From an uncultured Gemmatimonadales bacterium (lineage in GTDB: Bacteria > Gemmatimonadota > Gemmatimonadetes > Gemmatimonadales > JACORV01), in assembly GCA_963806755.1 (NCBI GenBank), contig CAWDZR010000016.1, positions 153,948 to 217,947 on the forward strand: a DNA stretch of 64,000 nt, read 5' to 3'. The notes beneath the pieces were generated by a model. That model had not been told where the DNA came from, did no database searches, and saw only the letters and a program-made list of their open reading frames with translations. The position numbers were made by a program, and so were the translations under genes. Below, piece after piece: positions 2,729 to 58,303 of the stretch (positions are counted from its first letter, which is position 1; every line of letters starts with the position of its first letter).

Positions 2729-2805
2729 CGGTGACTCCTTCTGCAAAGGGATGGACAACACCCGGTGAGTGGTGAACGGGTGAGAACGAGGGAGACGTTC
2801 ACCTC

Positions 2806-7034: not shown

Positions 7035-8251
7035 GGCGACATCCCGGTGGCGGAAAAGAGTTGAACGGCTGCGGCCGCCGTGTTCGCGGCGGCGGTATCG
7101 TCGATCAGCAGTGCCAGGGCGCCGCGCGCCTGGCGTTGGGCCTCGAGCACGCTGGGCAGGCCGACCGCGCCTTCGGCGTACGCCTGGAGCGACATGGCGG
7201 CGACGCGCTCCGCGCTCGACACCAGCCCGCGGTCGCGGCCGGCCTTCTCCACGGCGACGGCCAGGTCGCGCCGCGCGCGCGCCCGCGACGCATCCGACTC
7301 GCGGCGCGCCAGCTCCACCACGGCTCGCGCCCGGTCGCGCTCCGCCGCGGCCGCGGCGATCTGGCCGCCGTTGAGATTGAACAGCGGCAGCGGGATGGCG
7401 ATGCCGATCGCCGGCAGCAGGCCGCGCTGCGTCGGGTCGTGGGTGTCGAAGCCGAGCGTCAGACTCGGCGAGAGAAGCACGCTGCGCCGCGCCAGGGCGA
7501 GGGCGGCGTCGGCCGAGCCCAGCGCCGCTTCCGCGGCGGCCACCTGGAGGGTCGGCGCCGCAGCCAGGGCCGTATCCGCCGCCGGCAACGCGAGCGTGTC
7601 CGCGAGCGCAATGGAGACGGTGTCCGCGGCGAGACCCATCGCGCGCTGCACGTCCAGCACGGCGGTGACGGCCGATACGGAGTCCTGGGCCGCGGCGTTC
7701 GCGACCTGCCCCGCGTTCACGGCCGCCAGCTGCACGTCGAGGTCGCTGGCATCGCCTGCGTCCCGCCGGGCCCGCGCCATCTTGAGCAGACTGTCGGCGT
7801 CCACGGCGTCGCGGCGCGAGAGCCGGGCGTGCGCCGCGGCGCCGAGCGCCGCCGCGTAGGCCAGGTCCGCGTCGAAGCGAGCGGAGGCGCGCTGGAACCG
7901 GAAGCTCAGCACCGCCGAGCGGCTGGCCTCGGCGGCGGCCCGAATGCGCGCGCTGCGGATCCACGGGAAATCGATGAGCACGCCGACGGTGGCGTGGTAC
8001 TGCGGCGCGTCCTTGCTGTAGCCTGCGCTGAAGACGGGGTTCTCGTACTCCCGCGCGGTGATCAAGCCGGCGCGGGCGCTGGCGGTGTCGGCGGCGGCCA
8101 GCGCCACCAGGGGCCCGCGGGCGATCGCCGCCGCCTCGGCCTGGACGCGCGTGACGGTTTGCTGTGCGCGCGCCGACGGGGCCGCGAGCGCGTGGAGCGT
8201 GAGGAGGGCGGCGAGCCAGAACGCGGCGCGGAACGGCGCGGGACTAGGCAT
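7031..8251 (-). CDS. TolC-family outer membrane efflux protein
   Basis: Track ORF 7031..8305; the likely start is ATG 8251 (MPSPAPFRAAFWLAALLTLHALAAPSARAQQ signal peptide). The sequence is Ala-rich with a duplicated coiled-coil/beta pattern typical of OEP/TolC, and it is the first gene of the RND tricistron. Confidence 0.8.
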   Translation of the reverse strand: MPSPAPFRAAFWLAALLTLHALAAPSARAQQTVTRVQAEAAAIARGPLVALAAADTASARAGLITAREYENPVFSAGYSKDAPQYHATVGVLIDFPWIRSARIRAAAEASRSAVLSFRFQRASARFDADLAYAAALGAAAHARLSRRDAVDADSLLKMARARRDAGDASDLDVQLAAVNAGQVANAAAQDSVSAVTAVLDVQRAMGLAADTVSIALADTLALPAADTALAAAPTLQVAAAEAALGSADAALALARRSVLLSPSLTLGFDTHDPTQRGLLPAIGIAIPLPLFNLNGGQIAAAAAERDRARAVVELARRESDASRARARRDLAVAVEKAGRDRGLVSSAERVAAMSLQAYAEGAVGLPSVLEAQRQARGALALLIDDTAAANTAAAAVQLFSATGMSP

Positions 8252-10376: not shown

Positions 10377-11504
10377 TCAGTACTTCAGCCCCGCGGAATC
10401 GGCGAAGCTCTTGATCAGCGCCTCCTGCTCCGGCGAGAGCTTGGCCGGCAGGTCCACCTGGATCTCGACCAGCTGGTCCCCGCGGGCGCCGCCCTTCTCG
10501 ATGCCCTGGCCCTTGATCCGGAACGTCCGGCCCGCCTGCGTGCCGGCCGGGATCCGGAGCACCACGTGCTTCCCATCGAGCGTGCGCACCTTGAGCCTCG
10601 TGCCCAGGATCGCCTGGGCGACGTTGATCGGCACGGTGCAGCGCACGTCGAGACCGTCGCGGGAGAAGAAGTGGTCCGGCTCGACCTGGAACGCCACCAT
10701 CAGGTCGCCGGCCGCCGCGCCGCCGGTCCCCCGCGGCCCCTGCTCCTTCAAGCGGATCTTGGTGCCGTCGTCGGTCCCCGGCGGCACGTTGATCATCAGC
10801 CGCTTCTCGAGCCGGACCTCGCCGACGCCCTGGCAGGTGGGGCACTTCTGCGCCGCGACCTTGCCGCGGCCCCGGCAGGCGGGACACGGGCGCTTGACCG
10901 CGAAGCCGCCGTAGCCGAACGAGACGGTGCCGGTGCCCCGGCACTCCGCGCAGGTGCTGAGCGTCGAGCCGGGCGCGGCCCCCGTGCCGCCGCAGGTCCC
11001 GCACGCCTCGGTGACCAGGACCGAGACCGGGACCTTGCCGCCCAGCGCCGCGACGCGGAACGGAATGGAGACGACGGTCTCCACGCTCTCGCCGCGCTCG
11101 CTGCCGCCCTTGCGCTTGCCGCCCCCGCCGCCGCCCCCCCCGCCGAAGATCGAGGAGAACAGGTCACCGAGACCGCCCAGCCCGCCGAGGTCGCCCGGAT
11201 CGAACTCCTCGAAGCGGGTCCCGCCGCCGGGACGCGGCCTCGGACCCGCACCCGGGCTCCGCGTCCCCGCGCCCGAGAACGCCCCGTACTTCCGAAGCTG
11301 GTCGTATTGTCTGCGGCGCGCGGGATCGGCAAGAACGGCGTGCGCCTCCGAAATCTCCTTGAAGCGCTCGCCCGCGCTCTTGTCCCCGGGATTCGCGTCC
11401 GGGTGGTGCTTCTTCGCGAGCTTCCGGTAGGCGCGCTTGATCTGGTCGGGCGTGGCGTTCGCCGTCACGCCCAGGACGCCGTAGTAGTCCTTGTCCGCGG
11501 CCAT
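10377..11504 (-). CDS. dnaJ: Chaperone DnaJ (type I, with zinc-finger domain)
   Basis: J-domain (DYYGVLGV..AYRKLAKKHHPDANP), a G/F-rich linker, and four CxxCxGxG motifs (CGTCGGTG, CAECRGTG, CPACRGRG, CPTCQGVG). Confidence 0.9.
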   Translation of the reverse strand: MAADKDYYGVLGVTANATPDQIKRAYRKLAKKHHPDANPGDKSAGERFKEISEAHAVLADPARRRQYDQLRKYGAFSGAGTRSPGAGPRPRPGGGTRFEEFDPGDLGGLGGLGDLFSSIFGGGGGGGGGKRKGGSERGESVETVVSIPFRVAALGGKVPVSVLVTEACGTCGGTGAAPGSTLSTCAECRGTGTVSFGYGGFAVKRPCPACRGRGKVAAQKCPTCQGVGEVRLEKRLMINVPPGTDDGTKIRLKEQGPRGTGGAAAGDLMVAFQVEPDHFFSRDGLDVRCTVPINVAQAILGTRLKVRTLDGKHVVLRIPAGTQAGRTFRIKGQGIEKGGARGDQLVEIQVDLPAKLSPEQEALIKSFADSAGLKY

Positions 11505-19160: not shown

Positions 19161-20489
19161 TCAGCTCCCTCCCCCTCCGCCGTCGGCCATCGCGCGCCGC
19201 AGCGCGTCGAGCGCCGCCTGCGCGGCGCGGCGCCGGATCGCGTCGCGGTCGCCGGGCAGCAGGAACCGGAAGGCCCGCACCCGCCCCTGCCATTGCACGC
19301 CGATCCACACCGTGCCCACGGGCTTCTCCGGCGTCCCCCCGTCGGGCCCGGCAATGCCGGTGACGGCGATCGCCGCGTCGGTGCCGAGGACGCGGGCCGC
19401 CCCCGCGCACATCTGGCGCACGACCTCCTCGCTCACGGCACCGTGTCGCGCCAGCTCGTCGGCCGACACGCCGAGGAGTCCGCACTTCACGTCGTTGTCG
19501 TAGGCGACCACGCCGCCGAGGAAGACGCGCGAGCTGCCGGGCACGGCGGTGATCCGTCCTCCCAGCAACCCGCCGGTGCACGATTCGGCGACCGCCAGCC
19601 TGGCGCCGTGGCGCTCGAGCTCGCCGAGGACGAGCGCCGCGAGATCCGCGTCGCCTTCGCCGTAGCAGGTCGCGCCCAGCAGCGGGCGCAGCGCCGCGGC
19701 GGCCTTCGCCAGCGCCGCCTCGGCCTCCGCCGGAGCGACCTGCCACGCCGTCAGCCTGAGGTCGGTGCCTTCGGGGCCGGGGAGCCACGCGAGCGTCACG
19801 TGCTGCCCGAGCAGCCGGGAGGGGTCGCCGACCTTGTCCGCGAGCGCGGATTCCGAAATGCCGGTGGTGCGCAGCGTGCGGCTGAGGATGACCGTGGCCG
19901 CGGTCTCCGTGCCTCCGTGCCCCTGTGCCCCCGTGCCTCCGTCCTCCCGTGCCCCCGTGCCCCCGTGCCCCCGTGCCACCAGCCTCGGGATCACCTCCTG
20001 CTCGAGCAGCCCCCGCATCTCGACCGGCACGCCGGGGAGCAGGACGGCCAGGCGGCCGCGATCGTCCTCGAGCCAGAGCCCCGGGGCGGTGCCCGCGCGG
20101 TTCGGGAGCACCGTGGCGCCCTCCGGCACGTCCGCCTGGCGCCGGTTGGCCTCGGGCATCGGCCCGCGGCCCAGCCGGGCGAACCGCTCCTCGAGGGCGG
20201 CCACCAGCGCGGGGTCGCGCACCAGGCGGCGGCCGAAGACCGCGGCCACGGCCTCGCGCGTGAGGTCGTCCTCGGTCGGGCCGAGCCCGCCCGTGACGAT
20301 CACGGTGCCGGTGCGCTCGAGCGCGGCCGCCACGGCCGCGCGCACGGCTGCGGCCTCGTCGCCGACCGTGCCGTGCGCCGCGAGCCGGATGCCAGCCGCG
20401 GCCAGCCGCCGCCCGGCGTCGGCCGCGTTCGTGTCCACCGTGAAGCCCAGCAGCAGCTCGGTGCCGACGGTCAGGAGCTCGCAGTCCAT
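19161..20489 (-). CDS. cinA: CinA family protein (MoCF-binding domain plus nicotinamide-nucleotide amidohydrolase PncC domain)
   Basis: This is the C-terminal 442 aa of track ORF 19161..21125, starting at ATG 20489. Supporting motifs: ELLTVGTELLLG..DTNA.., ..VTGGLGPTEDDLT.., and C-terminal AESCTGGLLG..VAY.N..K...LGV. The interdomain linker carries the 8-nt repeat tract. Confidence 0.85.
   Translation of the reverse strand: MDCELLTVGTELLLGFTVDTNAADAGRRLAAAGIRLAAHGTVGDEAAAVRAAVAAALERTGTVIVTGGLGPTEDDLTREAVAAVFGRRLVRDPALVAALEERFARLGRGPMPEANRRQADVPEGATVLPNRAGTAPGLWLEDDRGRLAVLLPGVPVEMRGLLEQEVIPRLVARGHGGTGAREDGGTGAQGHGGTETAATVILSRTLRTTGISESALADKVGDPSRLLGQHVTLAWLPGPEGTDLRLTAWQVAPAEAEAALAKAAAALRPLLGATCYGEGDADLAALVLGELERHGARLAVAESCTGGLLGGRITAVPGSSRVFLGGVVAYDNDVKCGLLGVSADELARHGAVSEEVVRQMCAGAARVLGTDAAIAVTGIAGPDGGTPEKPVGTVWIGVQWQGRVRAFRFLLPGDRDAIRRRAAQAALDALRRAMADGGGGGS
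19907..19978. repeat. Nine tandem copies of an 8-nt unit (CCGTGCCC on +, GGGCACGG on the coding strand), in frame inside cinA
   Basis: Units: ccgtgcct ccgtgccc ctgtgccc ccgtgcct ccgtcctc ccgtgccc ccgtgccc ccgtgccc ccgtgcca. That is 72 nt or 24 codons, encoding ..ARGHGGTGAREDGGTGAQGHGGTE.. Confidence 0.85.
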
Positions 20490-25623: not shown

Positions 25624-25730
25624 GGAGTGCCCCAGGCACCCCGCCGCGACGTGGGACATCACTTAGCGCTGCTGCCTTCGGGGCTCTGACGCGGTTCGTG
25701 CGCCCTCGCCCGACGGACCTGGGGCACCTC
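25624..25730 (-). ncRNA. ffs: Signal recognition particle RNA (small, 4.5S-type)
   Basis: Minus-strand RNA: GGUGCCCCAGG...CGUCAGAGCCCCGAAGGCAGCAGCGCUAAGUGAUG...CCUGGGGCAC. The ends form a 10-bp closing helix. The apical GUCAG..GAAGG.AGCAGC..AAG.GA resembles the conserved domain IV of E. coli 4.5S RNA (GUCAGGUCCGGAAGGAAGCAGCCAAGGCAGA). It sits immediately upstream of dnaX, as in Bacillus subtilis scr-dnaX. Ends are approximate. Confidence 0.8.
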
Positions 25731-36533: not shown

Positions 36534-37556
36534 TCACTTCAGCACTTCCGCGACCACCGCGATCGCGCGCTCGACGTCGGCGGCGCTCACGTCGAGGTGC
36601 GTGATGGCCCTGAGCCGCTTCGGTCCGAACGCCGTCACCAGCACGCCCCGCTCCGCCAGCTTCGGGATCACGTCGTCGGCCATGTGACGGGTGAGGTCGA
36701 GCATCACGATGTTCGTCTCGGGCGGAAGCGGGCGCACGGCCGGGTGGCCCGCGAGGCCGTCGGCCAGGCGCCGGGCGTTGGCGTGGTCCTCGGCGAGCCG
36801 GCCGAGGTTGTGCTCGAGCGCCCAGAGCCCGGCGGCCGTGAGGATGCCCGACTGGCGCATCCCGCCGCCGAAGCGCTTGCGGATCTCCCACACCTCATCG
36901 CGCGCCTCCTTCGGGAACGCGAGGCACGAGCCGATGGGACAGCCCAGCCCCTTCGAAAGGCTCACCATCACGGTGTCGGCGGGCGCCGCGAGACGCGAGG
37001 GCGGGACGCCCAGCGCGGCCGCCGCGTTCCACAGCCGCGCGCCGTCGAGGTGCAGCGGCACCTTCACCTCCCGGGCCAGCGACCCGATGGCATCGCCCAC
37101 CGCGGCCGGCATCACCTTCCCGCCCGCCGCATTGTGGGTGTTCTCGATCGCCATCGCCGAGACGCGCGGGTAGTGCGGCGACCGGGGCCGCAAGGCCGCA
37201 CGCAGGAGCTCCGCCGTCAGCACGCCGTCGGGCGTCTGGACCGGGCGGACCTGCACCCCGGCGTTCGCGGCCACGCCGGCGATCTCGTACGTCAGCAGGT
37301 GCGCGCCGGCCTCCAGCAGCAGCTCCGTGCCGGGCCGCGTCAGGAGCCGGATGCCGGTCTGGTTGGCCTGCGTGCCGCTGGGGAAGAACAGCGCCGCTCC
37401 CTTGCCCAGCAGCTCGGCCACGCGCTCCTCGAGGCGCAGCGTGGTCGGGTCGTGGTCCAGGACGTCGTCGCCGACCTCCGCCTCGGCCATGGCGCGGCGC
37501 ATCGCGGCCGACGGGCGGGTGACGGTATCGGAGCGGAGATCTATGGGCATGGCCAT
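36534..37556 (-). CDS. ltaE: Low-specificity L-threonine aldolase (PLP)
   Basis: IDLRSDTVTRPS.AMR.AMA.AEVGDDV...DPT...LE..VAELLGK.AALF.PSGTQAN. The start is placed at ATG 37556 (MAMPIDL). The track GTG at 37580 would lie inside the GGCACGGG repeat. Confidence 0.85.
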   Translation of the reverse strand: MAMPIDLRSDTVTRPSAAMRRAMAEAEVGDDVLDHDPTTLRLEERVAELLGKGAALFFPSGTQANQTGIRLLTRPGTELLLEAGAHLLTYEIAGVAANAGVQVRPVQTPDGVLTAELLRAALRPRSPHYPRVSAMAIENTHNAAGGKVMPAAVGDAIGSLAREVKVPLHLDGARLWNAAAALGVPPSRLAAPADTVMVSLSKGLGCPIGSCLAFPKEARDEVWEIRKRFGGGMRQSGILTAAGLWALEHNLGRLAEDHANARRLADGLAGHPAVRPLPPETNIVMLDLTRHMADDVIPKLAERGVLVTAFGPKRLRAITHLDVSAADVERAIAVVAEVLK

Positions 37557-37575
37557 GGGCGCACCAACGCTGGAG

Positions 37576-37602
37576 GGCACGGGGGCACGGGAACGGCACG
37601 GC
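37576..37602. repeat. Intergenic GGCACGG(G) short tandem repeat
   Basis: ggcacggg ggcacggg aac ggcacggc, between the yihY-family stop codon and the ltaE start. Same unit as in cinA (19907..19978). Confidence 0.7.
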
Positions 37603-37608
37603 TGGCGC

Positions 37609-38496
37609 CTAGCGCAGCACCGCGCGCTGCGCGGTCTGGCGCCGCCGCAGCTCGTACACCTGCGCGATCTGGGCGCCGATGAGAAAGACGAACGTGAGGT
37701 AGTACACCCAGGCCACGAACAGGATGAGGGCGCCGAGCGTGGCGTCGCTCACCAGCTGGCCGGGGCGCACGAAGGTGCGGAAATAGATGCCCAGCGCGGT
37801 CCTCGCGACCTCGAAGCAGACCGCGCACACGAGGCCGGCCACGAGCGCCGTGTCCCAGCGCACCCGGTGCGCGGGGGCGTACTTGAAGATCATGACGAAC
37901 AGGCCGACCAGGAACGCGAAGGCCAGGATCTGGGCGGCGAAGAACTCGACGAAGCCGTGCCGGCCTTCCACCGAGAGCAGGCCCACGCTGAGCGCGGTGT
38001 AAACGGCGGAGAGAAGGCCGGTAGCCACGACCAGCACTGCGTCGTACGCCTTGCCGCGGAGCCAGGAGCGGGTCTCGCGGGTGTCGAAGACCTCGCACAG
38101 GGCGGCCCGCAGGGAGCCGAAGAGCCGGGTCGCAAACCAGACGAACAGCGGCAGGCCGACGAGGGTCAGGCGGCCGCGCGAGTGGGCGACGGTTTCGACC
38201 AGGTGGACCACCGGCGCGAAGGGGTCGGCGCCCGCGCCGCGGCCGTATTCCGGCAGGAGGCCCTGCAGGTACACGGCAAGATCCACCCGCGCGGCGGCCG
38301 CGCGCGCGTTGAGGACCGAGCCGGCGATGGAGAGGATCACGAGGACGAGCGGGATGGCGGCGAGGAGCGCGTCGAACGCCAGGCCGCTCGCGAGGAACGG
38401 CACGTTCGCCTCCACCGCGCCTTCGTAGACGCGGCGGACGAAGTTCCGCACGTCGTGCCACAGAAACAGCCAGCGGCGATGGCGGTCGGCCGCCAC
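37609..38496 (-). CDS. YihY/BrkB family membrane protein
   Basis: 295 aa. ..NVPFLASGLAFDALLAAIPLVLVIL.., six hydrophobic segments, C-terminal ..LILFVAWVYYLTFVFLIGAQIAQVYE. GTG start. Confidence 0.8.
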   Translation of the reverse strand: MAADRHRRWLFLWHDVRNFVRRVYEGAVEANVPFLASGLAFDALLAAIPLVLVILSIAGSVLNARAAAARVDLAVYLQGLLPEYGRGAGADPFAPVVHLVETVAHSRGRLTLVGLPLFVWFATRLFGSLRAALCEVFDTRETRSWLRGKAYDAVLVVATGLLSAVYTALSVGLLSVEGRHGFVEFFAAQILAFAFLVGLFVMIFKYAPAHRVRWDTALVAGLVCAVCFEVARTALGIYFRTFVRPGQLVSDATLGALILFVAWVYYLTFVFLIGAQIAQVYELRRRQTAQRAVLR

Positions 38497-38504
38497 GGTC
38501 GTGG

Positions 38505-39002
38505 CTACGCTCCCGGCTCCTCGCTGCCGCCGGGCGGCAGGGTGCCGCCGCGGGGCACGGTGCCCCCGCGGGGCACGGTGCCCCCCGGCGGGGAGCGCCG
38601 GGCGGCGCGCCGCGCCTCACGGGCGTCCGCGAGCCGCTGCTCGAGCTCGGCGCGCGCCGACGTGGCCACCTCGCGACCGGCCTCGACCGCGTCGTGCGCC
38701 GCATCCCGGCCTTCCTGCACGCTGCGCTTGGCCCGCTCGAGGTGCTCCTCGACGCGCGCCCGGGCGCTCTCGTAGCCGCCCGCCACCAGATCCTCGAGTT
38801 CGTCCACCTTCTCGGTGGCGAGGTCCTTGAGCTTGCGGGAGCGCGAGCGCAGGTCGGCGCGCAGCGCCGCGCCGCTCATCGGCGCGAACAGCAGGCCGAG
38901 GGCGGCGCCGGCCGCCAGCCCCCACAGGAACGGCGCCACCGCGGAGCCGCGCTTCTCCACCACCACCACGTCCTCGTCATCCTCGTCGTGATGCCGGGCC
39001 AT
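38505..39002 (-). CDS. YtxH domain-containing protein
   Basis: FLWGLAAGAALGLLFAPMSGAALRADLRSRSRKLKD.. followed by a long charged helix. The C-terminal tail PPGGTVPRGGTVPRGGTLPPGG is encoded by the 18-nt tandem repeat. Confidence 0.7.
   Translation of the reverse strand: MARHHDEDDEDVVVVEKRGSAVAPFLWGLAAGAALGLLFAPMSGAALRADLRSRSRKLKDLATEKVDELEDLVAGGYESARARVEEHLERAKRSVQEGRDAAHDAVEAGREVATSARAELEQRLADAREARRAARRSPPGGTVPRGGTVPRGGTLPPGGSEEPGA
38530..38583. repeat. Three tandem 18-nt units, each containing the palindrome GGCA(C/G)GGTGCC, in frame at the 3' end of the YtxH gene
   Basis: ccgggcggcagggtgccg / ccgcggggcacggtgccc / ccgcggggcacggtgccc. Confidence 0.8.
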
Positions 39003-39011
39003 GACGCCTCC

Positions 39012-40469
39012 CTATTCTCCGGCTTCGGCGTCGTCCGGCGCGGCGGAGCCGGCCACGGCCGGCTCCGTCCGCCGCACCGCCGGCGCCTTCACATGCTTCG
39101 CGACCAGCGCCGCGCTCCCCTCGACGCGCAGGGTCTTCAGCAGGAACGCGAACTGCTCCTCGAGCGCCGCGCCCAGCGCCCCGCGCACCACCTCCGACAG
39201 GCCCCACCACTCCTCCTTGAAGGGGCCGAGGGCCTTCTTGCGCGTCTTGTAGAAGAACTGCTCGTCCGTCTCCCCGGCCTTGCGCTCGTTGGCGGCGTTC
39301 GCGCGCAGCCAGTCGTAGATCTTCGCCTTGAAGGCGGCCGGCGTGGCCGGGTGCTCGAACAGCAGCGTCTGGAACGCGGTCGCCAGGTGGATCTCCGCCG
39401 TCTCGATCTCGGGGAACTTCCCGAACGCGGAGTTCGGCAGGGTCGAGGCGCCGTGCTGCACGGCGCCCGCCATCCCGTAGCGCTCGCGCGCATCGCGCGA
39501 CAGGATCCGCAGCGTATCGAAGTCGATCTTGACGTCGGCAATGGAGCCGTCCGGGAGCACGACGCCCCCGTGGCTCGTGCCGGTCTGAACGCTGATCTTG
39601 GAGATGCCGGTCAGCTTCGCGCCGCGAGCCGCGAGCGACGTGCGGTACCCGTCCGCGAACGCGTGCTGCTCCTCGATCGTGCTGTTCTTCCCCCCCACTT
39701 CCCCGATCTCGGCGCCCACGGAGATCGTGACGCCCTTGGGCTCCTGCGCCCGGATCGCCGCCGTCAGCTCCGCGGCGCGCTCGTAGTTGACCCGCTGCTG
39801 CGTGTCGAGCGTGGGCTGCGACAGGTCCACCAGCGTGGACGTGTCCACGTCGATGTTGTAGAACCCCGCCGCCACCGCCTCCTTCACCAGCGCCTTCACC
39901 GCACCGACCTCCCCCTCCGGGTCGGACGCGTACTTTTTGGCGTTGATCTGGAAGTGGTCGCCCTGCACGAACAGCGGGCCGCGGAACCCTTCCCGCAGGG
40001 CCGCCGCCAGGAGCACGGACACGTACTCCGCCGGCCGCTGGTCGGTGTAGGCCATCTCGGAGCGCGCGATTTCGCACAGGAAGGCCCCGGCCTCCAGCGC
40101 CCGCGCCGCCCGGAACAGGGCGCGCGCGGAGTCGTAGGCGAGGCCACGGATGTTGATCGCGGGCACGGTGAAGCCGTGCACCTCGCCCCGCCCGCGCGCC
40201 ATGTAGAGGTCGTGAATCGACGCCGGCCGCACGCCGACCACCTGGCCGATCTCCCACAGCAGCCAGCGGGCCGCGTCGCGGGTCGCCGGCTCGCCGAACA
40301 CCGCGCTGCGGACCAGCGTGTCCGTCGCCGGACCCGCCAGCACCGCCGGCCTCGGCACCGCGACCGCCCCACCCGCACTCACCGTCACCGCGCCCTTGAA
40401 GGGCTCGAGCAGCTTGCCGACCGTCTCCACCATCACGACCCCCGCATGCATGTGCGGCCGCGAAACCAC
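39012..40469 (-). CDS. Class II (metal-dependent) fructose/ketose-bisphosphate aldolase, long form
   Basis: ..HGFTVPAINIRG..., ..PLFVQGDHFQ.., ..GFYNIDVDTS.., ..TSHGGV.., ..GAVQHGASTLP. These are class II aldolase signatures. The start may instead be an internal Met (about 40433). Confidence 0.8.
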   Translation of the reverse strand: MVSRPHMHAGVVMVETVGKLLEPFKGAVTVSAGGAVAVPRPAVLAGPATDTLVRSAVFGEPATRDAARWLLWEIGQVVGVRPASIHDLYMARGRGEVHGFTVPAINIRGLAYDSARALFRAARALEAGAFLCEIARSEMAYTDQRPAEYVSVLLAAALREGFRGPLFVQGDHFQINAKKYASDPEGEVGAVKALVKEAVAAGFYNIDVDTSTLVDLSQPTLDTQQRVNYERAAELTAAIRAQEPKGVTISVGAEIGEVGGKNSTIEEQHAFADGYRTSLAARGAKLTGISKISVQTGTSHGGVVLPDGSIADVKIDFDTLRILSRDARERYGMAGAVQHGASTLPNSAFGKFPEIETAEIHLATAFQTLLFEHPATPAAFKAKIYDWLRANAANERKAGETDEQFFYKTRKKALGPFKEEWWGLSEVVRGALGAALEEQFAFLLKTLRVEGSAALVAKHVKAPAVRRTEPAVAGSAAPDDAEAGE

Positions 40470-40558
40470 GGCTCAACAGGCAAATGTAGGGCGCCCGGCA
40501 GGGGGCGTAAAGCACGGCACACCGCTCGAGTTGCGATGCCCGCACGCCTCCGGCCACA

Positions 40559-40981
40559 TTGAGCGTCGCGACGTCCCGTCCCCGCGCCGAGGAGAACGCC
40601 CCCGTGAGCGATCCATCCGCCGACCCGTACGACACGCACCTCGACATCCTGCACGGCGCGCTGGAGATCGTGGACGTGCCGGCGCTGGTGGCGGCGTGCC
40701 GGCACCCGTGGTACAACCAGACCCTGTGCCGGGTGAACGACGCGGTGGTGCGCCTCGGCGTGGTCCGAGGCGAGTACCACTGGCACCACCACGACACGGA
40801 GGACGAGTTCTTCTTCGTCGTGAGCGGCCGCCTGCTGGTGGACCTGGAGGGCCGCACCCTCGAGCTGGGGCCCGGGCAGGGTGTGGTCGTGCCCCACGGC
40901 GTGGAGCATCGCACGCGGGCCCCCACGCGCACCGTGATGCTGATGGTGGAGCGCGCCACCATCGTGCCGACGGGCAGCTGA
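40559..40981 (+). CDS. Cupin domain protein
   Basis: GEYHWHHHDTEDEFFFVVSGRLLVDL.G....L.PGQGVVVPHGVEHR (cupin motifs 1 and 2). The TTG start in the track may be replaced by a downstream GTG. Confidence 0.7.
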   Translation: MSVATSRPRAEENAPVSDPSADPYDTHLDILHGALEIVDVPALVAACRHPWYNQTLCRVNDAVVRLGVVRGEYHWHHHDTEDEFFFVVSGRLLVDLEGRTLELGPGQGVVVPHGVEHRTRAPTRTVMLMVERATIVPTGS

Positions 40982-40983
40982 CG

Positions 40984-41406
40984 ATGCGCCCGCCGCGCTC
41001 GCCGCCGCGCGTCCTCGCGTACGATCTCGGCGAGGGCTGGACGGCGCTGGTCGGGCGCTCGGACGCCGACAACGACCGGCTGACGCTGCGCCTGGCGCGC
41101 CCGGACGACCGCTGGTTCCACGTGCGCGGCTGGCCCGGGAGCCACGTGCTGCTGCGCGGCCCGGAGGGCGAAGAGCCCGGCCGGGACCTGCTCGAGCGCG
41201 CGGCGGCCATCGCGGCGCATCACAGCAAGGCGCGCGACGCGGGCGTGGTGCCGGTCTCGTGCACGCTCGCGCGCCACGTCACCAAGCCCCGGGGCGCCAA
41301 GCCCGGGTCGGTGGAGATCCGCAAGGAAGTCGTGCTGAAGGTCCGCCCCGCTCTGCCGGGCGGCACGGGGCCGCCGCGCGGCACGGTGCCGCCGGGCGGC
41401 GCCTGA
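40984..41406 (+). CDS. NFACT-R/DUF814 domain protein
   Basis: Lies in the frame of track ORF 40318..41406, starting at ATG 40984. Sequence: ..GWTALVGRSDADNDRLTLRLARPDDRWFHVRGWPGSHVLLRG..AA.IAA.HSKAR.....V......V.KP.GAKPG.V. The tail LPGGTGPPRGTVPPGGA is encoded by the 18-nt repeat. Confidence 0.7.
   Translation: MRPPRSPPRVLAYDLGEGWTALVGRSDADNDRLTLRLARPDDRWFHVRGWPGSHVLLRGPEGEEPGRDLLERAAAIAAHHSKARDAGVVPVSCTLARHVTKPRGAKPGSVEIRKEVVLKVRPALPGGTGPPRGTVPPGGA
41356..41403. repeat. About 2.5 tandem 18-nt units of the same GGCACGG(T/G)GCC family, in frame at the 3' end of the DUF814 gene
   Basis: ccgggcggcacggggccg / ccgcgcggcacggtgccg / ccgggcggcgcc. Confidence 0.75.
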
Positions 41407-41412
41407 CCCGCG

Positions 41413-42186
41413 TCACACCTCGACGGCGAGCCCGTCGTAGGCCGGCTCGATGCCGGCCGGCAGCTCCGCGAGCAGGGCCGCGTGGCCCGTCTCGTGGGTG
41501 AGGTGGGTGAGGAAGGTGCGGCGCGCCCCGAGCGCCCGCGCCGTCTCCACCGCCTCCGGGATGGACAGGTGCGTGGGGTGCGGCCGGTGGAACAGCGCGT
41601 TCAGGACCAGCACCTCGAGCCCGCGGAGGCGCTCGCGCGCCGCCTCCGGCACGACCTGCACGTCGGTGAGGTAGGCCAGCGCCCCGATCCGGTAGCCGAA
41701 CACGTCGGACGGCCCGTGCGAGAAGCGCAGCGGGAGGACCGGGGTGCCGGCCACGACCGTCGCCACGCCCGCCTCGAGCGCGGTCGCGCTGACGTCGGGC
41801 CGCGACGAGCCCGGGATGGGGCGGGCCGCGGGATCGAAGATGTAGTCGAACTTCCGGCGCATCCGCTCCAGCGCGTCGGCCGGCCCGTAGATCGGCACGC
41901 GGCCGCGACCGTGGCCCGACAGCGCCCGCAGGTCGTCGATCCCGTGCGTGTGGTCGGCGTGATCGTGGGTGTAGAGCACCGCGTCCACCGCGCCGATGCC
42001 GGCCCTGAGCAGGCCGAGCCGCAGCTCCGTCGGGGTGTCGATCAGCAGCGTCGCCGTCGCCGTCTGCACCACGACCCCGGCGCGGTTGCGCTTGTCGCGC
42101 GGGTCGGTCGAGGTGCACACCGCGCACGTGCATCCCACCTGCGGGATCCCGAACGACGTGCCCGTCCCGAGGAAGGTGAGGCGCAC
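41413..42186 (-). CDS. MBL-fold metallo-hydrolase (PhnP/RNase Z-like)
   Basis: This is the C-terminal 257 aa of track ORF 41413..43101. GTG 42186 lies 2 nt after the pyk stop codon. Sequence: VRLTFLGTGTSFGIP...C.C..C......NR......LLIDT, and YTHDHADHTHGIDDLR. Confidence 0.8.
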   Translation of the reverse strand: MRLTFLGTGTSFGIPQVGCTCAVCTSTDPRDKRNRAGVVVQTATATLLIDTPTELRLGLLRAGIGAVDAVLYTHDHADHTHGIDDLRALSGHGRGRVPIYGPADALERMRRKFDYIFDPAARPIPGSSRPDVSATALEAGVATVVAGTPVLPLRFSHGPSDVFGYRIGALAYLTDVQVVPEAARERLRGLEVLVLNALFHRPHPTHLSIPEAVETARALGARRTFLTHLTHETGHAALLAELPAGIEPAYDGLAVEV

Positions 42187-42188
42187 CG

Positions 42189-43625
42189 CTAGACCTCTTC
42201 CACCTTGACCAGGTTCGTGGTGCCCGGGACGTCGAACGGGACGCCGGCGGTGACCACGACGCGGTCGCCGGGCCGGGCGAGGCCGGTGGCGAGGATCCGC
42301 TCGCGGGCCGCGTCGAGCATCGCGTCGTAGTGCGGCGCGCCCTCGCACCGCATCGGCACCACGCCCCACACCAGCGCCAGCTGCCGGCACGTCGCGGCGT
42401 TGTCGGTGACGCCCAGCACTGGCACCGCCGGGCGATTGGCCGCGACCATCCGCGCGCTGAAGCCGCTCTTGGTGAAGGTGACGATCAGCGGCGCGCCCAG
42501 CATCCGCGCCGCGGCCACCGCCGCCGCCGCGACGGCGTGCTCGCTGCGCGCCGGGGCCTCCGGCACGAGGTCGAGCCACTCGGGCGCCGGCCGCCAGCTC
42601 CGGTCCCCCTCCACGGCGCGGATGATCCGGTCCATCGCCTCGACCGCCTGGCGCGGATGGGCGCCGACGGCCGTCTCCTCCGACAGCATGACCGCGTCGG
42701 TGCCGTCCCAGATCGCGTTCGCCACGTCCGACGCTTCGGCCCGCGTGGGGCGCGGCGCGCGCACCATGGACTCGAGCATCTGCGTGGCGGTGATCACCGG
42801 TCGCCGGTGCGTCACGGCGGCGCGGATGACGCGCTTCTGCGCCAGGGGCACCTGTTCGAACGGCAGCTCCACGCCGAGATCGCCGCGCGCCACCATCACG
42901 CCGTCGCTCGCGTCGGCGATGCGGTCGAGATCGTCGAGCGCGGTGTCCTTCTCGATCTTGGCCACGATCCGGATACCGGCCGGCAGGAGGGAGCGCAGCG
43001 TCGTGACGTCCCCGGCCCGGCGCACGAACGAGAGCGCCACGTACTCGACGCCCTGCGCGACGGCGAAGCCCACGTCCGCGCGGTCCTTGTCGGTCAGGCA
43101 CGGGGCGGAGACTGCGACGCCCGGCAGGTTGATGCCCTTGTGGCTGGACAGCGGCCCGCCGCAGCGCACCCGCGCCTCGACCCGCGGCGGCCGCACGGCG
43201 ACCACGTCGAGCGCCAGGAGGCCGTCCGCCACCAGGATCCGCGTGCCGGCGGCCACGTCGGGCGCCAGGTCGTAGGTGACCGGCACCTCTCCGCGCTCCG
43301 CCACGCCCTCCGGCGCGAACACCACGGTCCCGCCTTCCTCCAGCACCAGGGGCGCCGCCAGCTCGCCGATCCGGATGCGCGGCCCCTGGAGATCGAGCAG
43401 GACGGCGACGGGCTTGCCCGCCGCGGCCGCCGCCTCGCGCGTGGCGGCGACGAGCGCCGCCCGCTGCTCGGGCGTGCCGTGGCTGGCGTTGATGCGCGCC
43501 ACGTCGAGCCCCGCGGCGATCAGGCCTCCGACCGAGGCGGCGGAGGCGGCGGCGGGACCGAGGGTGGCGACGATCTTGGTGCGGCGGACGACCAGGGGGC
43601 TACCTCGCGGCGGGACGAAGCTCAA
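42189..43625 (-). CDS. pyk: Pyruvate kinase
   Basis: ..RRTKIVATLGPA......L..AG.DVARIN.SHG.., ..IVAKIE......L..I....DG.MVARGDLGVE.., ..ATQMLESM...P.PTRAE.SDVANA. The proposed TTG start at 43625 (7 nt after GGTGGAG) overlaps the receptor stop codon as TTGA. The track's longer N-terminus looks spurious. Confidence 0.88.
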   Translation of the reverse strand: MSFVPPRGSPLVVRRTKIVATLGPAAASAASVGGLIAAGLDVARINASHGTPEQRAALVAATREAAAAAGKPVAVLLDLQGPRIRIGELAAPLVLEEGGTVVFAPEGVAERGEVPVTYDLAPDVAAGTRILVADGLLALDVVAVRPPRVEARVRCGGPLSSHKGINLPGVAVSAPCLTDKDRADVGFAVAQGVEYVALSFVRRAGDVTTLRSLLPAGIRIVAKIEKDTALDDLDRIADASDGVMVARGDLGVELPFEQVPLAQKRVIRAAVTHRRPVITATQMLESMVRAPRPTRAEASDVANAIWDGTDAVMLSEETAVGAHPRQAVEAMDRIIRAVEGDRSWRPAPEWLDLVPEAPARSEHAVAAAAVAAARMLGAPLIVTFTKSGFSARMVAANRPAVPVLGVTDNAATCRQLALVWGVVPMRCEGAPHYDAMLDAARERILATGLARPGDRVVVTAGVPFDVPGTTNLVKVEEV

Positions 43626-55050: not shown

Positions 55051-58000
55051 TCATTGCCAGTCCCCCACCATCACCGACTTCGGACCGGCGGGGCGCTCCA
55101 CGTGGACGATCTGGCGATACCGGACGCCGTTCACGGTCACGCTCACCACGTAATCGCCCGGATCCACCGTGGTGGGCCCGCCGAATCCGCCGAAGCCGCC
55201 GAAGCGACGCGGCTCGAGGCCGGGCGGCGCCTCGTACGTGCCCGGCTCCGACGGCTCGGGGTCGCGGCCCCTGGCCAGCCGGCGGCCGCGGGCCGTCGTG
55301 TCGCCGCGGTACGCTTCGGCGAGGCTGTCGTGGACCACGCGCGAGCGCGCGGCCGCCAGCACGCTGTCGCGGAGCGCCGCCGGCCCGAGCGGCGGGCGGT
55401 TCTTGCGCAGGTCCCACGCCAGCCAGTGGAAGCCGGGCGCACCGCTGGCCTTGAGCGACCGCAGCGTGTCGCCGAGCGGGCCGGTGACGACGAACTCGAG
55501 GGTGTCCGCGCGCCTGCGCCCGCCGGCCCCTCCCCTGCCGCCGCCGGCCTGGGCGGTGTCGCCGCCCTCGCCGCCGCGGGCCGCGCCGGTGTCGGGCGCC
55601 GCCGGGGTGGCGCCGGGCATCCGGTAGGCGATCGCCGCGCCGAACGGAGGGTTGGACGCGACGTACAGCTTGTCGCCCGACCAGAATTGGCCCGTGCGCT
55701 GCTGGTAGAGCAGCGCCGGCTCCACCGGGAAGAGGGCGAACGGCGCCGCGGCGATGGAGTCGGTCAACTCCTCGAGCGGCCCGATGTCCATCGTGTAGAC
55801 GCTGCGGCCGTGGGTGGCCGCCACCAGCACCCGGTCGCGGGGATGGATGGCGAGATCGTGCACCGGCACCGTGGGCAGCCCCGCGTCGAGCCGGTGCCAC
55901 GCCGCGCCGGCGTCGAAGGAGACGTACGCGCCGTGCTCGGTGCCCAGGAACAGCAGCGACCGCCGCCGCGGGTCTTCGCGGATCACGTGGACGAAGTCGC
56001 CGTCGGGGAGCCCGGCCGCGAGGCCGGTGAACGTCTTGCCGAAGTCGTGCGTCACGAACACGAACGGCCGGTCGTCGTCGTCGCGGTGGCCGTCGAACGT
56101 CACGTAGCACGTGGCCGAGTCGAAGTGCGACGGCTCGACGCGGGTCACCCAGGTCATGCGCGGGACGCCGGGGAAGCGGCCCGCCAGGCTGCTCCACGCC
56201 GCGCCACCGTTGGTCGAGAGCCAGACCATGCCGTCGTCCATGCCCACCCACAGGATGCCGGGACGCACGGGCGACTCGGCGAGCGTGGTGATCGTGCCGT
56301 AGGTCTCCGCCCCGGTGACGTCGCGGGTGACGCCGCCGGTGGTGTGCAGGCTGACGTTGATGCGCGCCGTGTCGTGCGCCGACAGGTCGTCGCTGATGGG
56401 GACCCAGTGGTCGCCGCGATCCACGGACCGGTAGAGCCGGTTCCCGCCCAGGTAGAGCGTGTTGGGGTCGTGCGGCGAGAGGACGAACGGCGTGGACCAG
56501 TTGAAGCGCGGGCGGCCCACCGAGTCGGACGCGATGCGCGCCTTGTAGGCGTCCACCGCGCGCTGCTCCTCGGGCGTGGCCGGCTTCGTCGTGTCGCCGC
56601 GCGCGATGATCACCGAGTCCTCCAGCAGCTGCGACAGGGGCCGGCCGCCCGGGAAGATCCGGGCGCGATCCCAGGTCCTGAGGTCGAGGCGCGAGATGCG
56701 GCCGCCCTGGGACTCGGGGTACACGATGTTCGGGTCGGTGGGGTCGATCGCGGCGTAGAACCCGTCGCCGCCGCCCACGTTGAACCAGTCCTGATTCAGG
56801 ATCCCGTCGCGGCGGCTGGTGGCGCTCGGCCCGCACCACGCGCCGTTGTCCTGGAGCCCGCCGCAGATCCAGAACGGCTGCTGCATGTCGAGGGCGATCG
56901 CGTAGAACTGCCCGACCGGAAGCTGGCTGATGGCGTCGTAGGTGCGGCCCCGGTCGTAGGTGATCCCCAGGCCGCCGTCCTCGCCGACCACGTAGTGGTC
57001 CGGGTCGTTGGGGTCGATCCAGAAGGCGTGGTTGTCCACGTGGATGCTCTTGCCGATGACGCGCGGGGTGCGCCCCCCGTCGTTCGAGAACTTCAGCTCC
57101 GTCCCCATCCAGTAGATGCGGTCGGGGTCGCTGGGGTCCACCGCCACCTGGGAGAAGTAGAACGGCCGGTCGTCGTCCTCGTTCATCCTGGTCCAGGTGG
57201 TACCGCCGTCGCTGGTGCGGTACAGCCCCGACTGGAGGTGCTGGCGCTTGCTCGTGTCGGCCACGAATCCGCGGCGCAGGGACGCCGGGTTGGGGCTGCT
57301 GTCGGCCTCGACCATGGCGTACACGACCTGCGCGTTGCTCGGAGCGATCGCGACGTCGATGCGGCCCAGGGTCGTCGCGGGGAATCCGCCGCCCGCGATC
57401 TTCGTCCAGTGCTCGCCCGCGTCGGCGCTCCGCCACAGGCCGGAGCCGGGGCCGCCGCTGGTGAGCGAGTACGGCGTGCGCTGCCGCTCCCACGCCGACG
57501 CCCACACCACGTCGTGGTTCGACGGGTCCACGGCGACGTCCACGAAGCCGGCCCGGTCGCTGATGAACTTGACGTTGCGCCAGGTGCGGCCGCCGTCCGT
57601 GGTCTTGTACAGCCCGCGCTCCTTGTTGGGCGCCCACGCGTGTCCCAGCGCCGCCACGTACACGACGTTCGCGTCCGTCGGATCGATCGCGATCCGGCCG
57701 ATCTGCCGGGTGTCGGCGAGCCCCATGAAGGCCCAGGTCTTTCCGGCGTCGGTGGACTTGAAGACCCCGCCGCCCGGCGAGATGGAGTTGCGCGAGTCCG
57801 CCTCCCCGGTGCCGGCCCACACGACGCTGGTATCGCTCGGCGCCACGGCGAGGGCGCTCACGGTCGAGACCGGCTGATGGTCGAAGACCGGCGTCCAGGT
57901 GACGCCGTCGTTCACGGTGCGCCACAGCCCGCCGGTCGCGAACCCCGCGAACAGCTCCTTGGGATTGCGGGGGTTGCCGGTCACGGCGCTCACCCGCCCG

Positions 58001-58149
58001 CTCATGTCGGCGGGCCCGATCTCGCGCCACTTGAAGGCCGAGAGCAGCGTGGTGTCGGAGAGCGCCGTGGTGTCGGTCGCGGGCTCCTGGGCCTGGCCGG
58101 CGAGGGGCGCGAGCAGGACGAGGGCGAGCAGGGCGGTCGCGCTGCGCAT
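55051..58149 (-). CDS. Secreted Sortilin/VPS10-type BNR (Asp-box) beta-propeller protein (GH74-like fold), 1032 aa
   Basis: Signal peptide: MRSATALLALVLLAPLAGQAQ. Repeated Asp-box motifs: TVNDGVTW, STDAGKTW, TTDGGRTW, SADAGEHW, TSDGGTTW, SNDGGRT, SVDRGDHW, STNGGAAW, SFDAGAAW. Confidence 0.8.
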   Translation of the reverse strand: MRSATALLALVLLAPLAGQAQEPATDTTALSDTTLLSAFKWREIGPADMSGRVSAVTGNPRNPKELFAGFATGGLWRTVNDGVTWTPVFDHQPVSTVSALAVAPSDTSVVWAGTGEADSRNSISPGGGVFKSTDAGKTWAFMGLADTRQIGRIAIDPTDANVVYVAALGHAWAPNKERGLYKTTDGGRTWRNVKFISDRAGFVDVAVDPSNHDVVWASAWERQRTPYSLTSGGPGSGLWRSADAGEHWTKIAGGGFPATTLGRIDVAIAPSNAQVVYAMVEADSSPNPASLRRGFVADTSKRQHLQSGLYRTSDGGTTWTRMNEDDDRPFYFSQVAVDPSDPDRIYWMGTELKFSNDGGRTPRVIGKSIHVDNHAFWIDPNDPDHYVVGEDGGLGITYDRGRTYDAISQLPVGQFYAIALDMQQPFWICGGLQDNGAWCGPSATSRRDGILNQDWFNVGGGDGFYAAIDPTDPNIVYPESQGGRISRLDLRTWDRARIFPGGRPLSQLLEDSVIIARGDTTKPATPEEQRAVDAYKARIASDSVGRPRFNWSTPFVLSPHDPNTLYLGGNRLYRSVDRGDHWVPISDDLSAHDTARINVSLHTTGGVTRDVTGAETYGTITTLAESPVRPGILWVGMDDGMVWLSTNGGAAWSSLAGRFPGVPRMTWVTRVEPSHFDSATCYVTFDGHRDDDDRPFVFVTHDFGKTFTGLAAGLPDGDFVHVIREDPRRRSLLFLGTEHGAYVSFDAGAAWHRLDAGLPTVPVHDLAIHPRDRVLVAATHGRSVYTMDIGPLEELTDSIAAAPFALFPVEPALLYQQRTGQFWSGDKLYVASNPPFGAAIAYRMPGATPAAPDTGAARGGEGGDTAQAGGGRGGAGGRRRADTLEFVVTGPLGDTLRSLKASGAPGFHWLAWDLRKNRPPLGPAALRDSVLAAARSRVVHDSLAEAYRGDTTARGRRLARGRDPEPSEPGTYEAPPGLEPRRFGGFGGFGGPTTVDPGDYVVSVTVNGVRYRQIVHVERPAGPKSVMVGDWQ

Positions 58150-58252
58150 GAGAGGCGTCCGGGTTGTGGTGGTCGGGACGAAGAAGATGGCGTGCCGATC
58201 AGCCGGCGGCCATCCCAGGTAGTACGACGGGCTCCCGGATGGCGTTGCAGGA

Positions 58253-58303
58253 GGGGTTAGGGGTTAGGGCCCCGCCGCCCCTAGCCCCTTGTCCCTAGCC
58301 CCT
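58253..58303. repeat. GGGGTTA / CCCTAGCCCC unit-repeat hairpin in a divergent intergenic region
   Basis: ggggttaggggttaggg c cccgccg cccctagccccttgtccctagcccct. GGGGUUAGGG pairs with CCCUAGCCCC using one G-U wobble, and only in the plus-strand RNA. It lies 45 nt upstream of ATG 58349. Confidence 0.4.

Follow-up and report, generated by a model that had tools for sequence, protein, structure and literature searches.

Two 18-nt tandem arrays near the 3′ ends of opposite-strand genes in a Gemmatimonadales genome are probably in-frame coding minisatellites

The window analysed here, a 64-kb stretch of DNA from an uncultured Gemmatimonadales bacterium, carries two short tandem arrays, A1 and A2, near the 3′ ends of two genes on opposite strands. 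Pfam placed the minus-strand gene in the YtxH family and the plus-strand gene in the NFACT-R (DUF814) family, in agreement with a first-pass annotation of the sequence. Homologs of the YtxH protein (n = 123) come from Gemmatimonadales wherever they are named. A co-directional BrkB gene, the next gene of the same operon, starts 9 nt past the YtxH stop. The NFACT-R gene converges on an MBL-fold gene whose end is at 41413, leaving a spacer of 6 nt, and this synteny recurs in the loci L002 and L101 of relatives. An Rfam scan of the window returned SRP RNA only. The features treated below are these:

38505..39002, minus strand: YtxH-domain gene, 165 aa, with A1 near its 3′ end (Pfam PF12732, E 9.3e-12)
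38525..38585, minus strand: array A1, 3.4 units (Tandem Repeats Finder [TRF]; sequence; ortholog copy-number ladder 0/1/2/3)
38505..38525, minus strand: SEEPGA codons and stop, downstream of A1 (protein and DNA ortholog alignments)
40984..41406, plus strand: stand-alone NFACT-R (DUF814) gene, 140 aa, with A2 at its 3′ end (Pfam PF05670, NFACT-R_1, E 5.3e-10)
41355..41400, plus strand: array A2, 2.6 units (TRF; ortholog ladder; identical protein on Logan contig L001)
19907..19977, minus strand: (GGGGCACG)n octamer array in the inter-domain linker of cinA (TRF; ortholog linker alignment and DNA)
37575..37601, minus strand: short CCGTGCC(C) repeats (mRNA-strand reading) between BrkB and ltaE (TRF; window, L002 and L007 sequences)

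TRF reported A1 at 38525-38585 (period 18, 3.4 copies, 90% matches, score 87) and A2 at 41355-41400 (period 18, 2.6 copies, 89% matches, score 78). Just five arrays in the window score at least 75, compared with ∼0.07 per order-3 Markov null. A1 and A2 have the core GGCACGGTGCC in common. This exact 11-mer is present three times in the 64 kb (at 38554, 38572 and 41380), always on the plus strand and always within A1 or A2; with one mismatch it is found at 38536 and 41362. The repeat finder and the exact-core search thus uphold the earlier observation of two 18-nt tandem arrays built on GGCACGGTGCC. On the plus strand the A1 unit is GGCACGGTGCC followed by SCCGCGG, and its minus-strand translation within YtxH is (GGTVPR)2-GGTLPP; A2 translates on the plus strand, within NFACT-R, as GGTGPP-RGTVPP-GG. 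The tail peptides quoted in the first-pass annotation, SPPGGTVPRGGTVPRGGTLPPGGSEEPGA before the YtxH stop and ALPGGTGPPRGTVPPGGA before the NFACT-R stop, are correct. Its statement that the tract ends YtxH is right as to nearness to the 3′ end and not as to the terminus itself, where the protein continues past A1 with six residues, SEEPGA, that orthologs conserve whether or not they have the array. In the protein alignment EEPGA is found also in 0-unit orthologs, and the terminal Ala is invariant. The common plus-strand orientation of the arrays is likewise real: local alignment of A1 with A2 gave 40/46 identities and a score of 62 in the plus/plus orientation. The opposite orientation scored 38, and 30 Markov nulls of 64 kb also reached no more than 38.

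Unit numbers were compared among YtxH and NFACT-R orthologs at 85–98% identity. YtxH has three units in the window, two in P0001/L005, one in P0002/L006 and P0003/L007, and none in P0004–P0006/L002 or in any of the more distant homologs; the number differs even between proteins at 98% identity. NFACT-R has 2.6 units in the window and, independently, on L001, 1.6 in P0123/L008, and none in P0122, P0124 and ∼115 others, so that its tail runs ALPGGA / ALPGGTVPPGGA / ALPGGTGPPRGTVPPGGA across the orthologs. In DNA alignments all ORF length differences arise internally, by whole multiples of 18 nt; every ortholog aligns through the stop codon and into the DNA downstream, and PGGA followed by the stop is kept in NFACT-R. 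Since the stop, the downstream DNA and, in YtxH, SEEPGA are all in place after the array, these are internal in-frame expansions and not downstream DNA read into the ORF. Across both families the segments that contain the arrays differ in length as well as in sequence, and the units inside each array are 89–90% identical in DNA, synonymous sites included. The lack of arrays in distant orthologs supports a recent origin of the repeats at the DNA level, the level that the first-pass annotation had proposed.

The source is a metagenome-assembled genome, and the three-unit YtxH protein has no exact copy in the protein collection, where its best match has two units; repeat copy numbers might therefore have been mis-assembled. 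We consider this extremely improbable. The arrays, at 46–61 nt, fit within one sequencing read; an independent Logan contig, L001, reproduces the NFACT protein and its array exactly, and the intermediate copy numbers were obtained from samples and assemblers independent of each other.

Folding gave different pictures of the two arrays. The YtxH array as single-stranded DNA forms a long hairpin (−39 kcal/mol, z −3.5 to −3.9), and as RNA it reaches −81 kcal/mol (z −3.5). Together with the palindromic core, the placement of both arrays <100 nt from stop codons and the position of the NFACT array at a convergent junction with a 6-nt spacer, this very stable hairpin fits the proposal of an extragenic palindrome, REP-like or of terminator type, that entered the 3′ ends of genes and was then taken into their ORFs. 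REPs commonly lie close to the 3′ end of a gene or between two convergent genes (PMC3733652). Against such insertion, ortholog stops and downstream flanks are unchanged, the ORFs differ internally by steps of 18 nt, and YtxH keeps SEEPGA beyond its array. The NFACT array, moreover, folds no better than shuffled sequence (z about −0.2). A terminator/promoter consensus scan found zero terminator-like sites in 37000-43000, and no T run is present in the sequence at A1 or A2. The likeness to an intrinsic (Rho-independent) terminator consists in the capacity of the YtxH array to form a GC-rich stem-loop; by contrast, A1 and A2 have no U/T tract, lie upstream of the stop within ORFs, are dispensable in orthologs, and in the case of A1 sit mid-operon, with the co-directional BrkB gene just downstream. 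An intrinsic terminator was rejected on these grounds. REPs and BIMEs share with the arrays a short GC-rich palindrome with hairpin potential. Unlike them, A1 and A2 are intragenic and apparently translated, are made of tandem direct units and not inverted dimers, occupy two loci in 64 kb and belong to no dispersed family in the public genomes and metagenomes searched. Their units also lack a GTAG/CTAC or CGTC/GACG tag, whereas a GTAG or CGTC tag, unpaired at one end, marks most REP families (PMC3733652).

Searches for further copies tell the same way. Outside A1 and A2 there are none of GGCACGGTGCC in the 64-kb window, and four loci of relatives (L002, L101, L003 and L007) do not have the exact core. 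A dispersed GGCACGG signal was considered and dropped: outside the arrays there are 22 occurrences on the plus strand and 26 on the minus strand, compared with ∼19.5 expected per strand from base composition. A scan of public genome contigs that required two cores 18 nt apart yielded 67 loci in other genomes, mostly of high G+C; most of the names were Actinomycetota, none was labelled Gemmatimonadota, and the genome from which the window comes was not among them. These foreign arrays lie 3 to 1420 codons from the inferred stop, with no exclusive gene-end bias, an outcome that the first-pass annotation had itself named as contrary to its insertion proposal. By GC3 frame inference 42 of the 67 read as xxGTVP hexapeptide repeats at varied ORF positions, in frames that are approximate, the same inference having mis-called the frames of A1 and A2 in the window (neighbouring/overlapping ORFs). 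When metagenome contigs were scanned for one module and its flanking spacers, 24 matches came up, close to the ∼16 estimated for chance; these fall in unrelated genes (for example RGGTVPRG inside long ORFs whose sequence is unrelated), and none is a YtxH or NFACT ortholog. No dispersed family of the 18-nt module came to light in the public genomes and metagenomes searched, and we found no description of this specific 18-nt repeat in the literature. The REP/terminator model is already largely refuted, and we regard it as very unlikely.

Rickettsia palindromic elements (RPEs) and other MITEs place palindromic DNA in frame in conserved genes, adding a peptide segment (PMC10969869), and A1 and A2 resemble them in that in-frame palindromic DNA is tolerated in conserved genes. 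RPEs differ in being ∼150 bp long, multi-copy and inserted whole; the unit here is 18 bp, grows in tandem, shows no apparent element boundaries and gave no multi-copy family in the searches above. An in-frame MITE/RPE-type element (∼100–150 bp, multi-copy) was rejected in view of the 18-nt stepwise growth and the 24 chance-level metagenome matches.

The palindrome itself is a consequence of the genetic code. The peptides GGTVPP (GGN GGN ACN GTN CCN CCN) and PRG (CCN CGN GGN) are encoded by DNA whose first and second codon positions are self-complementary, and in a GC3-rich genome, where codons end in G or C, this makes the DNA nearly palindromic. The opposite strand of such a unit, read in the matching frame, therefore gives almost the same peptide (PRGGTV vs PPRGTV), which bears out the earlier remark that a quasi-palindromic unit would yield similar Gly/Pro/Thr/Val peptides from both strands. 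When both peptides were randomly re-encoded with the codon usage of the window, same-strand alignments scored 42.9 ± 7.5, occasionally up to 70. Their mean lies above 38, the highest Markov null score; the peptides and codon bias thus account for most of the resemblance between A1 and A2 in DNA. The observed score of 62 exceeds the re-encodings with P 0.007 when both arrays are re-encoded and 0.067 when one is.

Selection could also have produced matching peptides, if a GGTVP(R/P) hexapeptide with a function, such as a binding or spacer motif, had been expanded in both proteins. The near-identical motif in the two proteins, the frame that is always maintained and the recurrence of xxGTVP hexapeptide repeats in many unrelated high-GC bacterial proteins would agree with this, although the last point is weakened in that the census was selected on the DNA core and its GTVP readings are therefore partly built in. 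The motif is, however, confined to the closest orthologs, the units are near-identical in DNA even at synonymous sites, and copy number varies between 98%-identical proteins. A phmmer search with the 35-aa YtxH tail had 0 hits among 1.84 billion representative proteins, a result that is uninformative with so short and low-complexity a query. Selection of this kind seems to us quite unlikely.

Given an in-frame ladder, conserved flanks, codon-level symmetry and no terminator or REP features, we interpret A1 and A2 as in-frame coding minisatellites of the VNTR type that arose by 18-bp slippage duplication in this Gemmatimonadales lineage, a reading to which we assign a probability of roughly 0.8. 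Replication slippage or unequal pairing would have produced head-to-tail duplicates of an 18-bp (6-codon) unit within C-terminal segments that are short, rich in Pro and Gly and poorly conserved, in two proteins that are conserved elsewhere. Expansion would be recent and limited to this lineage. Conservation of the frame suggests that the extra residues are translated as part of a flexible tail, where they are probably close to neutral. Self-complementary single strands may form hairpins that would plausibly favour slippage. The NFACT array has no unusual hairpin stability (z −0.2 to −1.0), which counts against such a role; hairpin-promoted slippage is thus not needed there. Known coding VNTRs share with A1 and A2 the head-to-tail units (here of 18 bp), the kept frame, the stepwise copy number among close relatives, the conserved flanks and the location in low-complexity, probably disordered protein segments. 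The present arrays differ in that their unit is self-complementary at the codon level, in that they yield near-identical peptides in opposite-strand genes from the same DNA orientation, and in showing no signs of phase variation or surface-antigen function.

The first NFACT-R unit, which turns ALPGGA into ALPGGTVPPGGA, is something other than a clean tandem duplication of local sequence, and this counts against simple slippage. The same-strand similarity of A1 and A2 is also above the expectation from peptide and codon usage, hinting at some DNA-level exchange.

An exchange between the two loci, 2.8 kb apart, is proposed tentatively, as the less probable course. A palindromic module of ∼22 nt (GCCGGGCGGCACGGTGCCGCCG) would have been copied between A1 and A2 on the same strand, with GCCGGGCGGC as the microhomology for either template switching or short-patch gene conversion, and expanded afterwards by slippage; being codon-palindromic, it would be tolerated in frame in the opposite-strand gene. 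Such an exchange is compatible with the slippage account and would explain how the arrays were seeded. The same-strand alignment described above points to it, as do the excess synonymous-site similarity of A1 and A2 (P 0.007-0.07) and a stretch of 22 nt that the coding strand of L008 NFACT shares exactly with the complement of the YtxH array in L005. Further, the YtxH and NFACT-R peptide units are not the same unit, each being what the reverse complement of the other encodes (PRGG vs PPRG), and the ACGGTG of the first NFACT unit has no local template, since it is absent from the array site in the DNA alignment of 0-unit NFACT-R orthologs. However, the orientation signal rests on ∼6–7 nucleotides, and its marker is mutable, the L006 YtxH array showing that the Arg codon can stand on either side of the core. 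Peptide and codon usage alone can score as high, as the re-encodings show (mean 43, occasionally up to 70), and no third copy of the module was found in the window, the relatives' loci or the metagenomes. RecA-dependent recombination has a usual minimum homology length, and the A1/A2 homology is at or below it.

Intramolecular template switching also underlies quasi-palindrome-templated mutagenesis (Ripley/Lovett-type models). The likeness lies in the near-perfect palindrome and in a first unit that creates inverted arms of 12–15 nt (GCCGGGCGGCAC / GTGCCGCCGGGC); by contrast, the later steps in A1 and A2 are direct 18-nt duplications and not perfection of a palindrome.

The GGGCACGG octamer repeats in cinA and at 37576 are possibly related to A1, to judge from a shared 7–9-mer; the common sequence of the cinA array and A1 is limited to GGGGCACGG. 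A G-quadruplex is plausible for the cinA octamer array (G5-CAC-G5...). In the 18-nt arrays one was judged implausible, given their long loops and competing hairpin. We think it improbable that a codon-palindromic module of ∼18–22 nt (GCCGGGCGGCACGGTGCCGCCG) spreads between nearby loci through template switching or short-patch conversion and, since either strand reads as Gly/Pro/Thr/Val, seeds in-frame minisatellites in genes of either orientation. Such a strand-symmetric, translation-tolerant micro-repeat might be a miniature analogue of in-frame palindromic elements, and might be linked to the GGGGCACG octamer arrays of the lineage.

In-frame minisatellite growth is mainly a clean negative for the idea of capture: an apparent terminator or REP caught at gene ends resolves, through ortholog copy-number ladders and conserved flanks, as an ordinary minisatellite. 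In high-GC genomes GGTVPP, PPGG and PRG-type peptides are self-complementary at the codon level, and low-complexity segments rich in Pro, Gly, Thr and Val are by construction palindromic DNA, hairpin-capable and alike when read from both strands. Palindromes built by codons in this way can mislead annotation as well as the classification of repeats. Should A1 and A2 indeed have exchanged sequence, they would offer a small example of disordered protein tails seeded by DNA-level processes.

Two arrays with an 18-nt period lie in genes on opposite strands, in a window of 72% G+C whose proteins match Gemmatimonadales sequences. The first-pass annotation had reported both, their palindrome GGCACGGTGCC and their YtxH and DUF814 host genes, and Tandem Repeats Finder and the domain matches agreed:

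38505-39002, minus strand: YtxH-domain protein gene (PF12732)
38525-38585: YtxH array, period 18, 3.4 copies, 90% matches, score 87
40984-41406, plus strand: stand-alone NFACT-R/DUF814 protein gene (PF05670)
41355-41400: NFACT array, period 18, 2.6 copies, 89% matches, score 78

Exact copies of the palindrome number three in the 64 kb (38554, 38572 and 41380), and copies with one mismatch start at 38536 and 41362; all are on the plus strand and within these arrays. The YtxH array is near the C-terminus, as had been noted, but does not supply the last residues, six more following it. Only five tandem arrays in the window score at least 75, where an order-3 Markov null yields about 0.07. Period 18 also accounts for 9 of the 19 calls scoring at least 50 (starts 14375, 14634, 19194, 21052, 38525, 41355, 43893, 58040 and 61662), against about 0.33 per null, an excess that may be partly artefactual because the Markov null ignores codon structure; calls other than the YtxH and NFACT arrays are weak and degenerate, and their sequences are unrelated.

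Orthologs were collected by protein searches and alignments, and their encoding contigs were retrieved and aligned as DNA. Repeats were restricted to the closest relatives, where their number varied stepwise.

Repeat units and C-terminal tails of orthologs
YtxH, window: 3 units, peptide ending in SPPGGTVPRGGTVPRGGTLPPGGSEEPGA and stop
YtxH, P0001 (98% identical): 2 units, SPPGGTVPRGGTVPPGGSEEPGA
YtxH, P0002: 1 unit, SPPRGTVPPGGSEEPGA
YtxH, P0003: 1 unit, APPAGTAPGGGSEEPGA
YtxH, P0004-P0006 and all more distant homologs examined: 0 units, SPAGGTEEPGA and similar
NFACT-R, window: 2.6 units, peptide ending in ALPGGTGPPRGTVPPGGA and stop
NFACT-R, P0123: 1.6 units, ALPGGTVPPGGA
NFACT-R, P0124 and P0122: 0 units, ALPGGA and ALPGGG

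All length differences were exact multiples of 18 nt inside the ORF, and the stop codons, the codons preceding them (GAGGAGCCGGGAGCGTAG in YtxH, GGCGGCGCCTGA in NFACT-R) and the downstream flanks aligned in all orthologs. From these alignments we infer that both arrays are internal, in-frame, recently expanded repeats and not downstream DNA read into the ORFs; the earlier proposal, that a palindromic repeat inserted at gene 3' ends was absorbed into the ORFs, is at odds with stops and flanks that are unchanged in orthologs lacking the tails. An independent assembly (contig L001) encodes exactly the same NFACT-R protein, array included, and an assembly artefact is extremely improbable. Tails were short and unrelated in about 115 further NFACT-R homologs; that the peptide repeat is itself under selection is unlikely.

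One relative's contig, L101, carries a repeat-less NFACT-R that is 93% identical (P0126). Fragmented ACR_tran ORFs (5272-7822), adjoining the aldolase gene, hold the slot that YtxH (38505-39002) has in the window, indicating that in that lineage the region was rearranged locally or underwent pseudogenisation.

The proposal of a terminator-type or REP-like palindrome was not supported, and we consider it very unlikely. Terminator-like sites, a hairpin followed by a T tract, were lacking from 37000-43000, the GTAG or CGTC tags that mark most REP families (PMC3733652) were absent from the 18-nt units, and the core was found nowhere outside the two arrays, either in the window or in the relatives' loci. 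The YtxH array forms a long hairpin (RNA -81 kcal/mol, z -3.5; ssDNA z -3.5 to -3.9), and the NFACT array folds at the level of shuffles (z -0.2 to -1.0). YtxH sits in a co-directional string (aldolase-YtxH-BrkB-threonine aldolase), its stop 9 nt from the next start. Repeat-less relatives share the window's gene geometry, down to the convergent junction of 5-6 nt that follows NFACT-R. When 185,579 species genomes were scanned for pairs of cores spaced 18 nt apart, 67 loci matched, mostly with Actinomycetota names and none labelled Gemmatimonadota. By GC3 frame inference, in which frame calls are approximate, 42 of these are xxGTVP hexapeptide repeats, and the arrays lie 3-1420 codons from the inferred stop, so there is no exclusive bias toward gene ends. 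A metagenome scan for the single module and its spacers gave 24 matches in unrelated genes, about the composition expectation.

The palindrome has its source in the codons. For GGTVPP (GGN GGN ACN GTN CCN CCN), the Thr codon's third base is the centre of a self-complementarity that takes in every first and second codon position; for PRG (CCN CGN GG), the centre is the middle CG. Codons here nearly always end in G or C (GGC 63%, CCG 59%, GTG 60%, ACC/ACG 52/47%), and peptides of these types are therefore encoded by near-perfect palindromes, whose complementary strand, in the matching frame, gives a nearly identical peptide. Thus the plus-strand unit GGCACGGTGCC-SCCGCGG reads GTVPPR on the plus strand (NFACT-R) and PRGGTV on the minus strand (YtxH), as the first-pass annotation had expected of a quasi-palindromic unit. 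When both array peptides were randomly back-translated with window codon usage, the same-strand alignment score was 42.9 +/- 7.5, already higher than the maximum over 30 Markov nulls (38). Most of the DNA resemblance between the arrays comes from their peptides and codon bias.

The actual arrays align better still, scoring 62 on the same strand (40/46 identities) versus 38 in opposite orientation; 62 was attained in 0.7% of cases when both peptides were re-encoded and in 6.7% when YtxH alone was. Together with a 22-nt exact match, GCCGGGCGGCACGGTGCCGCCG, between the complement of the two-unit YtxH array in L005 and the NFACT-R coding strand in L008, this suggests, without proving, exchange between the arrays, with GCCGGGCGGC microhomology as the site of template switching or of short-patch conversion. 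ACGGTG, in the first NFACT-R unit, is absent locally from 0-unit orthologs, and that unit is therefore no simple local duplication. However, the orientation markers comprise only about 6-7 nucleotides, and in L006 the Arg codon lies on the core's other side, so the marker is mutable. Such exchange is a tentative possibility, as a seeding step added to slippage and not exclusive of it.

Other repeats and structures were noted:

2285-2400: near-perfect hairpin, about 110 nt long, in which a GC-rich loop separates five GTGATGAN octamers in tandem from five inverted copies; relatively AT-rich for the genome; RNA MFE -76 kcal/mol, z-score -8.5; adjoins a minus-strand PepSY-domain gene (2387-3022) and lies upstream of the gene for an AcrB-family transporter
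10803-10887, minus strand: 42-nt repeat encoding two CxxCxGxG units (CPACRGRGKV, CPTCQGVGEV); resembles the cysteine-rich zinc-finger repeat found in DnaJ-type chaperones, an ordinary protein-level repeat
19907-19977, minus strand: about nine GGGGCACG octamers, cinA inter-domain linker
25626-25725, minus strand: bacterial small SRP RNA (RF00169, 41.8 bits), the window's sole Rfam match at gathering threshold
37560-37601, minus-strand mRNA: BrkB-ltaE spacer (BrkB to threonine aldolase gene), CCGTGCC(C) short repeats at 37575-37601
58250-58303: inverted heptamer arrays, (AGGGGTT)x2.6 - GGGCCCCGCC - (GCCCCTA)x3.9; moderate hairpin, z -1.9 on the plus strand; a short distance upstream of a minus-strand Sortilin/BNR-repeat gene (55051-58149)

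The cinA and spacer arrays are GGGCACGG repeats. In cinA, (GGGGCACG)n is read in three frames as the 8-residue repeat GTGA(R/Q)GHG; a single-unit change would shift the frame between both CinA domains, and the coding strand (G5-CAC-G5...) is a textbook G-quadruplex motif. Across Gemmatimonadales, CinA orthologs (394-452 aa) keep the DNA octamer periodicity with about 4 to 10 units (for example L103 ~1020-1110 and L104 ~1040-1060), and relatives carry CCGTGCC(C)-like repeats in the same BrkB-ltaE spacer (L007 1755-1790; L002 5355-5400). These arrays have only the 7-9-mer GGGGCACGG in common with the YtxH array, and the heptamer is not over-represented outside the arrays; such short matches do not establish a common origin.

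Direct observation covers the ladder of copy numbers, the conserved frame and flanks, the codon symmetry and the lack of features of terminators or REPs. The reading we favor, with a probability of about 0.8, is that the YtxH and NFACT arrays are in-frame minisatellites of the slippage type, with an 18-bp unit, within C-terminal segments that are disordered, and that they are translated, probably near-neutral, and palindromic through codon self-complementarity. Units would multiply in frame by slippage, which hairpins may promote, and the added residues would be translated at little cost or benefit. The arrays would belong to a known class, the coding VNTRs; their strand-symmetric coding is neat, as is the shared orientation of two arrays whose genes lie on opposite strands, but both are largely a consequence of the genetic code.
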